This document shows positions 19,140-24,692 of a DNA stretch of 48,442 bases, piece after piece. Source of the DNA: a virus (taxonomy: Duplodnaviria > Heunggongvirae > Uroviricota > Caudoviricetes); the IMG/VR virus record IMGVR_UViG_3300039208_000529, positions 1 through 48,442 of that record; one strand, given 5' to 3'. Both the position numbers and the translations under genes were made by a program. The notes under the pieces were generated by a model, which worked only from the letters and a program-made list of their open reading frames with translations, ran no database searches and was not told the origin of the DNA. Every line of letters starts with the position of its first letter. The stretch's first letter is position 1.

Positions 19140-19293
19140 ATCTAATTTTCCATCCAGTCTCTTGGCAACCCCAGCACGGCTGAAACACTCCTATGTTTGT
19201 ATGATACACCGCAGGAGCTTTTGTGCAAACTGGACACGGAAAATTATGTTGTGCGACTAAGCCATCACACCAAAAGTCAAATTTAGCTAACAT
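19090..19293 (-). CDS. Zinc-ribbon hypothetical protein
   Basis: HNFPCPVC...PCWGCQ. Confidence 0.65.
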   Translation of the reverse strand: MLAKFDFWCDGLVAQHNFPCPVCTKAPAVYHTNIGVFQPCWGCQETGWKIRFEQKWWEKLFGTKSVR

Positions 19294-19618
19294 CAAACGA
19301 TTCTCCACAGCCACAATTTTTACTTGCATTAGGATTGTTAAACCTAAAACCACGAGCTATAAGAGATTCTTCAAAATCTACCTCAAGCCCGTTTAAATAT
19401 AAAAAACTTTTAGGATCACAAACTATTCTTACAGGACCACTGTCGAATACTTGATCCAATTCTCCCACAATATCTTCAAAACCTAATGTATAAGAAAAAC
19501 CACTACAGCCGCCACCCTTAACACCAACACGAATCATAATTATTTTTTGAACAAAATTAGGATCGTCTCTGGCAATCCTAATTAATTCATGTATTGCTTT
19601 GTTTGTTAAGGATATCAT
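19283..19618 (-). CDS. iscA: A-type Fe-S carrier (IscA/HesB family)
   Basis: GGGCSGFSY, DPKS.LYL.G, NPNA..CGCGESF. Confidence 0.95.
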   Translation of the reverse strand: MISLTNKAIHELIRIARDDPNFVQKIIMIRVGVKGGGCSGFSYTLGFEDIVGELDQVFDSGPVRIVCDPKSFLYLNGLEVDFEESLIARGFRFNNPNASKNCGCGESFDVS

Positions 19619-19784
19619 TAAACTCCTCTATCGACACTCTTGCTTGTGTCGCAGCTTCTATAAGTTTTTTTATATTCATCCCGGCCAAATTTCTCTCGAT
19701 CTTCTTTTTTTCAGCCTGCTTCAATCTTCTATCTTCTGCATTGATCTCATCAAGAAGATTTTGTGCCCACTCTTGCAAACTCAT
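19587..19784 (-). CDS. Hypothetical protein
   Basis: Packed ORF. Confidence 0.55.
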   Translation of the reverse strand: MSLQEWAQNLLDEINAEDRRLKQAEKKKIERNLAGMNIKKLIEAATQARVSIEEFNDILNKQSNT

Positions 19785-20026
19785 TCGATTCCAAACAATC
19801 TATATAGTATATTTCTCTTTTTTCGCCATTCATAGACAGACAAATTGTATTCTTCTAATTTATCTATCATACTTAGCCAAGTAATTCTATAACACTTATC
19901 CAGTTCTGGAATTTTACCTAAATCTATACGATAAGCATTCAGCTGCTTTTCTAATAGACCTATCTTTCTTTCTAATTCATCAACTTCACGTTGACGTTCT
20001 ACTACTTTCTTCCACCATCTTCCCAC
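19781..20026 (-). CDS. Hypothetical protein
   Basis: Packed ORF. Confidence 0.55.
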   Translation of the reverse strand: MGRWWKKVVERQREVDELERKIGLLEKQLNAYRIDLGKIPELDKCYRITWLSMIDKLEEYNLSVYEWRKKRNILYRLFGIE

Positions 20027-20313
20027 GGCTTACCTTTGCCAATATCATTCAACATGTCAAGCGTTTCATGTAAACGAATCTCAATCTCTTTTCGACGCTT
20101 CGGAGATAATTTAGAATCGGCACATTGAGCCATCATTTTGTCCGCTCGGGCATCGATCCATCTTACTAGCTGCTCTACTTCCTTATTGACAACATTTCTG
20201 TTAATAGATAACAAGCTAGCTATTGTATTTAGTGCAAAGCCTGCCATCGGATTGGCGGCCGTAACTCCCTGTCTGAGTCCAGGGTTTTTCATTAATCTTT
20301 TGAAGAAATTCAT
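20002..20313 (-). CDS. Hypothetical protein
   Basis: ATGA overlap with the release factor stop. Confidence 0.65.
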   Translation of the reverse strand: MNFFKRLMKNPGLRQGVTAANPMAGFALNTIASLLSINRNVVNKEVEQLVRWIDARADKMMAQCADSKLSPKRRKEIEIRLHETLDMLNDIGKGKPWEDGGRK

Positions 20314-22415: not shown

Positions 22416-22894
22416 ACATATCCTTGTTCAGGAACTTCACCTTGTTTTTCATATTCTCGGACATCTTTATTGAAAATCACAAGAATATCCTTTTGCTTAA
22501 GATAATCTTCAAGAGATATATATTTGCCATATCTAGGAAACTCTGTACATACTTTGTATCCTTCGGCAGGCTCCTCGTTTGCTTCCAAGTAGAAATGATC
22601 TCTCCAATATGAGTCATTGCTCATATCTTTATAACGACCCGTATTAGGATCTCTTTCATGATGAAGTGTTTTGCAATTTCTATGATATCCAGTAAGTTGA
22701 GAAAGAAATTCATGACTTGAAACGGAGTAGTCTTCTCCGCAGCATGTACAGCTTACTTTATGAGGAGAATGACCAAATCTATTGTAGAAAATTACTTCAG
22801 CTTGTTCTTCATTATCCGCTTCAATGTAAATACATTCGTATGGTTCTTCTTTACATCCACCACCACTATGCATATCCAAAAATTGCGTCCACAT
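22403..22894 (-). CDS. Conserved phage hypothetical protein (Cys-rich)
   Basis: FLDMHSGG...IYIEA...CTCCGEDY. Confidence 0.7.
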   Translation of the reverse strand: MWTQFLDMHSGGGCKEEPYECIYIEADNEEQAEVIFYNRFGHSPHKVSCTCCGEDYSVSSHEFLSQLTGYHRNCKTLHHERDPNTGRYKDMSNDSYWRDHFYLEANEEPAEGYKVCTEFPRYGKYISLEDYLKQKDILVIFNKDVREYEKQGEVPEQGYVWVD

Positions 22895-23619
22895 TATACT
22901 TTCTCCGTTAAATAAACATGTTGTTCGATATAATCTCTATCGTCTTTAAAGATAGGAATTTCAGTGTTAACCTTACAATTTCCAGTTACACATATTCCAC
23001 GTTTTTTCCAAGTATCTAAGGCACCCCAATTGATACCTCGTTCAATAAACATCATATCTTGCATTTCGTTACAGCTTTTACCATGTAGTTCATTGTGACT
23101 GAATAGAGATTGAGCTAACATGCTAACACTATTTCGCGTAGCATCTTGTTGTCTCCAAATAAAATAGTTGCAAACTTCTTCTTTTGGAAGGTTGAATACT
23201 CGTGCATCAAATTGTGCACGTCTAATTGGATTTCTATATTTTTCTAGTGCGTGATTTGCAAAAAACTCATTAAAAGAGTTCGATGCAATTGATGCAGAAA
23301 TAGACACCATTTTTTGGATATTATATCCAAACCATGCATCAGTTTGGAGCGTATCATAATCCGTAATCAACACGGACACTTCATCGCTTTGAGTATAAAC
23401 AAATTTTGCTCCCTGAATCTCATTAAAAAGATCGTGAGCGACAACCGTCATGGCTGCACTCATTTGTGTATCGAAGGGCTTATCGAATTTACTTCGTTTA
23501 GTAAGAGTATGAAATGCTCTCCCGTCCACACGAAGAATAACTGGCATACGACGAATAAGAACGTTGCGAACAACATTTTCGTAACCCTTCATTCGATCTC
23601 CTAAAGAGGTCTTATCCAT
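22894..23619 (-). CDS. tRNA(His) guanylyltransferase Thg1-like protein
   Basis: RMKGYE, RVDGRAFH, QSDEVS, FDAR, YFIWRQQDATRNS. Confidence 0.95.
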   Translation of the reverse strand: MDKTSLGDRMKGYENVVRNVLIRRMPVILRVDGRAFHTLTKRSKFDKPFDTQMSAAMTVVAHDLFNEIQGAKFVYTQSDEVSVLITDYDTLQTDAWFGYNIQKMVSISASIASNSFNEFFANHALEKYRNPIRRAQFDARVFNLPKEEVCNYFIWRQQDATRNSVSMLAQSLFSHNELHGKSCNEMQDMMFIERGINWGALDTWKKRGICVTGNCKVNTEIPIFKDDRDYIEQHVYLTEKV

Positions 23620-23996
23620 TAGAAATCCTCCGGATATTCTATATACATGCCTTCATATTCGTAATCGCTACGTTCCTCTAAAAACATGTAAGCTCTAACT
23701 AAATCATTGGACTCTACGATTTGTCTAGCCGTTGTTTCATCTTTGCGAACATAACGTTTACGACGCTTAACTCCTGCGTATTCAGCAGCAGCTTGATTGT
23801 CGTCATCGTCTTCTTCGTCCCAATACCAACCCTCATCAAGACGCTCTTTAATGATTTTTATAGCCGCACGACAGTAATCCTCTTTAGTATTACATATAAA
23901 GTAACGATTACCATGTTTCTCTCTAAACACAAGAATGCCTGATTCAGACAGTCTGCGTTCTAGGTATTTTGGAAATTTTATTGTCTTTTGATCCAT
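23619..23996 (-). CDS. Hypothetical protein
   Basis: REKHGNRYF...ERSDYEYEG. Confidence 0.7.
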   Translation of the reverse strand: MDQKTIKFPKYLERRLSESGILVFREKHGNRYFICNTKEDYCRAAIKIIKERLDEGWYWDEEDDDDNQAAAEYAGVKRRKRYVRKDETTARQIVESNDLVRAYMFLEERSDYEYEGMYIEYPEDF

Positions 23997-24343
23997 GTCT
24001 TTTCTTTAAAGTTGTCTATGTGATAGTTTACGAAGTTGTAGTAACTTGATCTACAATGTGTTTCTCTAACAGTGCTATTACATTTTGGACATTCTATATT
24101 ATACTCAGGATTCTCTCCGCTTGTCCAATAATCTCCACCTGTACAACTATAAGGCTCAACATAATATTCCACAACTTGAACAGTTAATTTGCTAATTGCT
24201 GTCCCTTTTCCACACGAAGGACATTTCCATTTACGATTAGAACGTAAACGTTCTTTCTGTTCTTGCAAATCTTTGATCTGCTTATCAATTTCAGCTTCAG
24301 CCGGCGTCCAAGGTAATTCCATATCTTTCTCTTTCATCATCAC
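23978..24343 (-). CDS. Zinc-finger hypothetical protein (start may be 24322)
   Basis: CPSCG...PYSCTGGDYW...CPKC. Confidence 0.7.
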   Translation of the reverse strand: MMMKEKDMELPWTPAEAEIDKQIKDLQEQKERLRSNRKWKCPSCGKGTAISKLTVQVVEYYVEPYSCTGGDYWTSGENPEYNIECPKCNSTVRETHCRSSYYNFVNYHIDNFKEKTWIKRQ

Positions 24344-24692
24344 TCATCCCAAAACGTTCAAGTGCTTCCCTCGTGTGACTCACGGTCACATCTCCACCAG
24401 CCATTCAGTCCCACCCTGTATAATCACAGCCTGCGGCTAAGTTAAAATACCGGCCGTCAGAAAGACGACCATAAACAATCCAGGTTGGTCCGTCATTCTC
24501 GCCTTCTTCTATACCATAAATCTCAACAACGTCCTCACGAACAAAATGATCAACAGGAGTATTTTCCTCTGTTAGAACAGCGGAAACATTGGGAGTCCCA
24601 TCGCGACTCCATGGACCATCTTCACCATATTCTTCTACGCCCGCATACTCAAACGCTTTAGCCCAACTATATCCTTCAAGCTCTTTCAACAT
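24297..24692 (-). CDS. Candidate selenoprotein (in-frame UGA at 24407-24405), about 131 aa
   Basis: EGENDG..W...AAGCDYTGWD-TGA-MAGGDVTVSHTREALERFGM...; frame stays open for 35 codons; SECIS-like hairpin just downstream. Confidence 0.65.
24374..24390 (-). promoter_or_regulatory. Bacterial SECIS-like hairpin
   Basis: UGUGAC-CGUGA-GUCACA; loop begins 20 nt after the UGA and has GU at loop positions 2-3. Confidence 0.6.

Follow-up and report, generated by a model that had tools for sequence, protein, structure and literature searches.

A putatively frameshift-gated RF1-like release factor gene and a candidate selenoprotein gene: two probably independent UGA recoding sites in one phage genome

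Two bacterial systems are the closest described counterparts of the locus analyzed here. In prfB, the gene for release factor 2 (RF2), a short leader ends at an in-frame UGA that is preceded by a Shine-Dalgarno (SD)-like element, a 3-nt spacer and CUU, and the body of the gene lies in the +1 frame; the Escherichia coli site reads AGGGGG UAU CUU UGA C. In bacterial selenoprotein genes such as fdhF, an in-frame UGA, represented by cysteine (Cys) in homologues, encodes selenocysteine (Sec) and is followed closely downstream by a hairpin with G and then U in a small apical loop. RF2 competes with both processes at UGA. Sites resembling both systems were found on the minus strand, 3.3 kb apart, within the first 48,442 b (the window) of the 177,556-b tailed-phage record IMGVR_UViG_3300039208_000529 (40% G+C), namely in a gene for a short RF1-like release factor (RF) and in a candidate selenoprotein gene. 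The preferred interpretation, for which a probability of roughly 0.7 is estimated, is that two independent recoding devices, each belonging to its own widespread phage gene family, share this genome by chance.

The RF site directly follows groES. Its leader open reading frame (ORF; 20989..21015, minus strand) starts with an ATG (21015-21013) overlapping the groES stop codon by one base and comprises eight codons (MKTNRRCL) before an in-frame TGA. It contains a prfB-type +1 frameshift cassette (20989..21003, minus strand) composed of the SD-like AGGAGA (21003-20998), TGT as spacer and E-site codon, the slippery CTT (20994-20992) and the TGA (20991-20989), followed by G. As in prfB, the SD-like element is placed 3 nt upstream of CTT, the stop codon is in frame with CTT, and the factor body (226 codons, 20310..20990, minus strand) lies in the +1 frame; the register is that of the E. 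coli site. The +1 frame is open from 21011, and its first ATG, GTG or TTG occurs only at 20924. Reading CTT-T in one step results in a protein of 234 residues, which aligns with the solved RF1 structure 1rq0 from its own residue 9 onward (188.6 bits, E 1e-54). Pfam PCRF and RF-1 domains were identified at 20310-21011 on the minus strand (2.6e-27 and 3.3e-27), the PCRF match beginning 21 residues upstream of the Met at 20924.

A broken RF gene, that is, a pseudogene or an assembly error, or expression from the internal ATG at 20924, would explain why gene callers report only a 204- or 201-residue ORF, but is considered very improbable. Conserved residues are encoded upstream of that ATG, the contigs of two runs of one study, which may be the source of the stretch, match it with 0 differences, and the cassette recurs, with its SD-like element and a C after the stop, in 52 of 74 distinct relatives. 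The frameshift at this site therefore looks genuine as judged from sequence comparison, and the UGA-gated RF1-type gene listed in the earlier note is present as described.

The encoded factor comprises PCRF positions 101-194 and the RF-1 domain with GGQ, as in RF1, and lacks domain 1. Among NCBIfam models, prfA scored 257 bits, prfB 178 and PrfH 79, all under their cut-offs; for prfA the cut-off is 400 bits, so that the factor falls short of a full-length RF1 with domain 1. These matches start at model positions 105-118, from which the absence of domain 1 is deduced, and since a second PCRF piece was not found and the genome holds one PCRF match only, domain 1 is not encoded separately either. 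Against solved structures, RF1 reached 189 bits, RF2 chains at most 123 and PrfH 52. Moreover, the decoding loop reads QRCPPTENRGRRHTS, in which PPT is aligned to the PVT loop of RF1 1rq0 and represents a PxT-type loop. The RF1-type assignment made earlier is thus upheld by profile scores, structure scores and loop, which identify the factor as RF1-like at the level of sequence. RF1 reads UAA and UAG, not UGA, and the product is accordingly predicted to recognize the former two stop codons and not its own gate. Autoregulation in the manner of prfB, in which the product reads the gating stop, does not match this combination of predicted RF1 specificity and UGA gate.

The absence of domain 1 is also a feature of PrfH (RF-H), a class-I-like factor that lacks the N-terminal domain and has kept a codon-recognition-like domain (PMC6514570, excerpt). 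The short factor could accordingly be a PrfH-like rescue or repair hydrolase belonging to a module of RNA repair and translation maintenance with Thg1 and an RlaP-like gene rather than a general terminator; a weak PrfH match (79 bits) and the presence of Thg1 and an RlaP-family gene on the same arm speak for this. However, the match stays far below the PrfH cut-off (TIGR03072, 166.65 bits), RF1 is much closer in profile (257 vs. 79 bits) and structure (189 vs. 52) comparisons, the PxT-type loop is kept, and the PrfH partner RtcB was not found in the genome, which renders this explanation doubtful.

Relatives of the short RF were obtained from scans of viral and metagenome contigs, in which loci were fetched by conserved peptide patterns. 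In total, 90 loci were examined, and 74 distinct ones, among which near-duplicates remain, were kept after removal of identical C-termini; L033, L035 and L038-L043 were dropped because the GGQ pattern missed their GGQG, and each of them shows a CTT TGA C site. The site finder covered CTTT or TTTT followed by a stop. In a protein search, the best 120 hits were all 200-300 residues long. The cassette was detected in 52 of the 74 genes, amounting to 59 sites. Gating per gene was by a single TGA (35 genes), a single TAG (10), TAG+TAG (3), TAG+TGA (2), TGA+TGA (1) or TAA+TGA (1), corresponding to 40 TGA, 18 TAG and one TAA over all sites. CTT serves as the slippery codon at 58 sites and TTT at one; the gating stop is followed by C at 39/59, and CTT is preceded by TGT at 19. 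An SD-like 4-mer was present upstream of 43/59 sites, compared to 299/2900 random positions (~10%). Sites occupy two positions in the gene, either just before an E-I-x-x-G-x-G-G motif, as in the window, or approximately 37 codons into the gene. Tandem cassettes, checked by eye, occur in seven genes (L020/L021, L209, L031, L018, L025, L046, L207); the mixed tandems UAG-then-UGA and UAA-then-UGA would need slips at two different stop codons.

The remaining 22 genes without a site comprise direct starts on the short form, in-frame TGA without a shift, truncated contigs and longer forms. Direct starts were observed among these in L022/L001 and L047 and also in G009, and because L001, L047 and G009 start directly on the short form, the domain-1-less protein is regarded as a real product. 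In-frame TGA without a frameshift signature was found in L023, L030, L048, L057 and L064, whose phages may read TGA as sense; in one of these, the in-frame TGA lies at the column of the internal frameshift site itself. Examination of ORF density flanking the RF loci gave no clear sign of recoding. A quick tree of 66 rows requires at least 22 changes of gating type (shuffled mean 29.0; 0/200 shuffles reached so low a value), and the RF of the window belongs to a poorly resolved group mixing TGA-gated, TAG-gated, tandem and ungated genes. Furthermore, the PxT loop is replaced by a PKNGGG- or PKSGKG-like sequence in L024, L183, L185, L188, L196 and L201, all of which are UGA-gated, and other short RFs feature PPS, PPN or Gln instead of the His of HTS. 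The PKNGGG/PKSGKG clade and the other loop variants may differ in their stop-codon specificity.

Compared to bacterial prfB, the cassette shares the signal elements named above and differs in its gene: the phage-encoded product is RF1-like, lacks domain 1 and should not read its own UGA gate, and the phage relatives use UAG and UAA gates as well as tandem cassettes. In a survey of 12,753 bacterial genomes, programmed frameshifting was not found in prfA, and the prfB motif was never found with TAG (PMC12421855); the CUU-stop entries of RECODE are all prfB (PMC10885494). Among viruses, the class-I RF gene of Mimivirus and Megavirus involves frameshifting and readthrough at internal stops, described as bacterial-like autoregulation (PMC3521657). 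It resembles the present case as a virus-encoded termination factor needing recoding; unlike it, the Mimivirus factor is of the eukaryotic/archaeal eRF1 type and belongs to an amoeba virus, whereas here a bacterial-type RF1 of a phage is gated by one +1 cassette. In stop-codon-recoded phages (Lak, Agate, Jade), the RF1 and RF2 genes present are thought to bias termination; they are reported with no mention of frameshifting (10.1101/2021.08.26.457843; PMC7162821), and the word 'frameshift' is absent from the main text of the former. These are likewise phage-encoded class-I RFs; unlike those phages, the genome studied here uses the standard code.

For the RF gene, the following mechanism is proposed. 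Ribosomes would translate the eight-codon leader and pause once CUU occupies the P site and UGA the A site. The upstream SD-like element would pair with 16S rRNA, and a fraction of the ribosomes would slip +1 onto UUU and produce the 234-residue RF1-like factor without domain 1. RF output should then vary inversely with the speed at which host RF2 acts at the leader UGA, and during infection the capacity for termination at UAA and UAG is probably increased by the product.

The second site resides in a small gene of 131 codons (24297..24692, minus strand) in which UGA is codon 96 and provides the U of the motif GCDYTGWD-U. The frame starts with ATG at 24692, reaches the in-frame TGA at 24407-24405 (minus strand) and continues for 35 more codons to a TGA at 24299-24297; gene callers end the product at 95 residues. 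The family profile spans the in-frame TGA (E 1.6e-52, one TGA inside). Of the 27 protein homologues, five terminate precisely at the TGA column, at GWD or GWG, and the other 22 are full length, have Cys in this column and share a conserved tail. Viral loci of this family came from an alignment-based scan of viral contigs; loci of every origin were found through the pattern GCDYTGW and include some duplicates; a single-protein scan with the readthrough protein returned 0 loci. At the column in question, 66 viral loci encode TGC (32), TGT (20) or TGA (14), and 12 loci in bacterial or archaeal assemblies encode Cys (11) or TGA (1). Including the window, the 79 genes thus feature Cys in 63 cases, TGA in 16 (the window and 15 others) and no other codon, and the homologous frame runs on after every TGA. 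An in-frame UGA aligned with Cys and followed by conserved coding sequence is what characterizes bacterial-type selenoprotein genes. The weakly resolved family tree needs 11 Cys/Sec changes, of which well-supported branches force at least two. The recoding of UGA in this gene, as claimed before, therefore looks real, and UGA-96 is likely a selenocysteine codon. In one run, a separate low-depth contig of 273 b was approximately 90% identical to part of the UGA gene (window 24502-24542) and probably derives from a related phage in the same sample.

Downstream of the UGA, a SECIS-like hairpin (UGUGAC-CGUGA-GUCACA; 24374..24390, minus strand) with a 6-bp stem, the loop CGUGA and a free energy of -5.8 kcal/mol was identified, with 20 nt between UGA and loop. 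The bacterial SECIS model asks for a loop of 3-9 nt, a stem of at least 4 bp, a G in the first two loop positions, a distance of 16-37 nt from the UGA and -7.5 kcal/mol or better (PMC13188914, excerpt). Loop, stem, position of G and spacing of the window hairpin agree with this model, the spacing also being that of bacterial selenoprotein genes. When the model limits were applied together with a required perfect stem of at least 5 bp, a hairpin of -5 kcal/mol or better was found in 12/16 TGA genes vs. 7/63 Cys genes (Fisher 1.2e-6), and one of -7.5 kcal/mol or better in 6/16 vs. 0/63. Spacing between UGA and hairpin is 19-20 nt in 11 TGA genes, the stem sequences differ, and besides CGUGA in the window the loops AGUU, GGUC, GGU and GGC were observed. 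TGA and Cys genes could not be told apart by their whole 60-nt folds (p 0.24 and 0.84); the distinction emerged from the position-specific hairpin test alone. Genes selA, selB and selD and tRNA-Sec were not found above cut-off in the phage genome, and Sec insertion would therefore depend on the host. Directed by the hairpin, which lies 20 nt downstream, host SelB with Sec-tRNA would insert Sec at UGA-96. This residue would fall in a C-x6-U motif (C-x6-C in most relatives), after which, as comparison with the relatives suggests, the 35 conserved residues would be translated.

The C-x6-U/C pair may be redox-active. In the confidently predicted structure (pLDDT 83), a helix packs against an antiparallel sheet, and both C89 and U96 are located in a loop. 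Neither Pfam nor PHROGs gave a match for the protein, and a Foldseek search with the predicted structure returned none at E 0.001 or better; the best VIA match (Z 4.7, cystatin- and WGR-like sheets) is within background. An atlas look-up with a Cys-form homologue yielded viral 'hypothetical protein' clusters only. Genes flanking 59 loci of the family are mostly associated with replication and recombination, and neighbours in common with the window, IscU/IscA, were found in L135 only. L167 (G009:C1:30000-49999), from a second phage contig, resembles the window in that its TGA-form gene is separated by approximately 3 kb from neighbouring IscU and IscA genes; no other common neighbourhood was found for the family.

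Unlike fdhF-type genes, the window gene belongs to a phage, encodes no recognized fold, has a short hairpin and would depend wholly on SelA, SelB, SelC and SelD of the host. Poxvirus glutathione peroxidases are also virus-encoded selenoproteins, but represent captured eukaryotic genes with a eukaryotic SECIS, whereas the present family is phage-specific and carries a bacterial-type signal; in excerpts of reviews, poxvirus selenoproteins are the only ones named among viruses (PMC8310308). In a 2026 review of the prokaryotic selenoproteome, the words 'phage', 'virus' and 'viral' never occur (PMC13188914), and searches for phage selenoproteins in the literature covered returned papers on eukaryotic viruses only, with nothing closer. 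Within this literature, both the candidate selenoprotein family and the RF1-like gene under prfB-type gating look new for phages.

The earlier note had combined both sites into one circuit: a co-evolved pair in which a drop in RF2 raises the selenoprotein and the RF1-like factor together, tuning UGA decoding. Since both sites compete with RF2, a change in RF2 activity would indeed shift both in the same direction, and they lie 3.3 kb apart on one strand. Furthermore, the nearest relative, represented by proteins P0037 (75% identical) and P0008 (73%), both from contigs of 4,888 b, probably keeps both features, alone among the relatives, judging by its sequences: P0037 begins at the corresponding internal Met, and P0008 terminates at GWD. 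The metagenome scan with the RF did not return this 75%-identical relative. Record G009 likewise combines a TGA-form gene with an RF, IscU and IscA. Co-occurrence across relatives, however, argues against such a pairing. Fifty Sec-family records (all 14 viral TGA forms and 36/52 Cys forms) were screened for the RF: one, G009, holds a full short RF, with a direct start and without a frameshift, and one more gave a weak RF fragment. Of the 14 TGA-bearing viral records, one has an RF at all. Conversely, the Sec family was found in three of 50 RF records; these three are related, and each combines the Cys form with a UGA-gated RF. The gate itself is not tied to UGA either, as shown by the 18 TAG sites and one TAA site among 59 and by the frequent changes, on the tree (66 tips), of the gating codon, which is often UAG. 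A co-evolved circuit is therefore judged improbable, and we conclude that the common RF2 dependence is real but incidental, a side effect and not a conserved design.

Several points weigh against the preferred interpretation of two independent recoding devices. For the small gene, the window hairpin is weaker than the model limit (-5.8 vs. -7.5 kcal/mol), the 86-nt fold after the TGA is no better than shuffles (z -0.18), and a permissive Rfam search of 24200-24500 returned chance-level snoRNA-like rows and no SECIS family. Moreover, an ATG directly follows UGA 24405-24407, making termination and re-initiation with two peptides possible. Together with a phage devoid of Sec machinery, the ATG and the short hairpin would suit a UGA that is not decoded as Sec, being either a true stop (a 95-residue product, possibly plus a re-initiated 35-residue peptide) or a leaky one read by an ordinary tRNA as Trp or Cys. 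This alternative is unlikely: the column is exclusively Cys or TGA in 79 genes, the frame is conserved after TGA, the position of the hairpin is tied to TGA genes, and the Cys homologue P0017 likewise has Met in the following position, where L177 has ATG. For the RF, the RF1-like nature of the product implies that the UGA gate is not a self-regulating loop in the style of prfB, UGA-G is not the weakest stop context, and the site finder was limited as described. Finally, counts for the RF and Sec families are not independent events, as the loci were fetched by patterns and include near-duplicates.

A genome on its way to UGA reassignment, also suggested previously, is scarcely credible. RF1 has been reported in TGA-recoded phages (10.1101/2021.08.26.457843, excerpt), and the five RF relatives with in-frame TGA and no shift point in the same direction. 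In the genome itself, however, the standard code fits best, long ORFs covering 93% compared to 92% with TAG and 90% with TGA as sense, and the stops of 274 ORFs are TAA (115), TGA (101) and TAG (58). Comparison of stop usage across gene blocks showed TGA as a stop in every block, including 14/34 ORFs of the minus arm and 5/25 of the plus arm (p 0.10). A UCA-anticodon tRNA was not found among the ten tRNAs of the genome, all of which are located at 142-172 kb. A well-formed CUA-anticodon tRNA of the amber suppressor type is present instead, outside the window (G000:C1:152892-152967, minus strand); it would compete with the RF1-like factor at UAG, and TAG otherwise ends 58 ORFs. A further tRNA-like gene outside the window (G000:C1:164434-164507, plus strand) has, according to ARAGORN, a six-base anticodon loop and is listed as undetermined (Leu|Ile). 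Treating TAG as sense raises ORF density at window 1-10000 (0.89 vs. 0.80) and at G000:C1:170001-177556 (0.90 vs. 0.79). Genome-wide TAG recoding, hinted at by the CUA tRNA and the end regions, was rejected, as same-frame ORF pairs split by one stop show no TAG excess (TAG 15, TGA 14, TAA 31).

Taken more widely, both families could be read together, a reading to which slightly better than even odds are assigned as a whole. It holds that domain-1-less RF1-like factors gated by a portable prfB-like +1 cassette form a big undescribed phage family, that this cassette can be written on UGA, UAG or UAA, can occupy either of two positions in the gene and can occur in tandem, and that the members of the family are phage-encoded sensors of the termination capacity of the host that can be tuned to RF1, RF2 or both. 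RF1-type genes could accordingly be frameshift-regulated, which was not found in bacterial surveys, and the C-x6-C/U protein would be the first phage selenoprotein family, repeatedly switching between Cys and Sec. A bolder variant is that some short RFs may have an altered or broadened stop specificity (PPS, PPN, PKNGGG; Gln for the His of HTS), in which case the UGA gate would be self-regulating. Until now, programmed frameshifting of RF genes has been regarded as peculiar to bacterial RF2. The RF1-like phage cassettes over three stops, with their tandems, offer a natural variant series for asking what the cassette senses and why phages need extra, tightly limited termination capacity. The selenoprotein family, if true, would extend the use of selenocysteine to bacterial viruses and tie such phages to Sec-competent hosts, providing a possible host marker, and the window hairpin would represent a very short natural SECIS. 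For annotation, it is relevant that gene callers truncate both genes.

Both genes belong to a minus-strand arm at approximately 9.7-26.4 kb, consisting of small, often overlapping genes; a plus-strand arm with glycosyltransferases and the large terminase begins at 26.6 kb. The genes previously listed on the minus strand were confirmed by Pfam: IscA (IscA/Fe-S_biosyn, iron-sulfur assembly; 19283-19618, 2e-18), the RF, GroES (Cpn10; 21015..21317, match listed at 21015-21368, 1.7e-19), IscU (IscU/NifU_N; 21737-22117, 6e-54) and a Thg1-family tRNA-His guanylyltransferase (22894-23619, 1.8e-30). For the PagL-like gene (21319-21786, minus strand), a small protein with a weak match was found, at 3e-4 and under the Pfam cut-off. 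Further genes of the arm encode a dCMP deaminase, a YpsA/SLOG protein, an RlaP-family nucleotidyltransferase and an AAA ATPase. Based on common strand and overlapping genes, it is plausible that the arm forms one transcription unit; in a scan for promoters and terminators, signals were no more frequent than in shuffled sequence. The RlaP-family RNA-repair nucleotidyltransferase (13898-14863, minus strand) and Thg1 lie on the same arm as the RF, which suggests a theme of tRNA repair and translation maintenance. A blastn search of the region against GenBank phages returned short IscU and Thg1 matches only.

The record is classed as linear by IMG/VR, with a CheckV completeness estimate of 89%. 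An identical primer-like 17-mer is present, inverted relative to the other copy, at each end of the contig (window 1-70; last 70 b of G000:C1), and approximately 45 b adjoining it are directly repeated at both ends, which suggests an amplification adaptor plus a terminal overlap.

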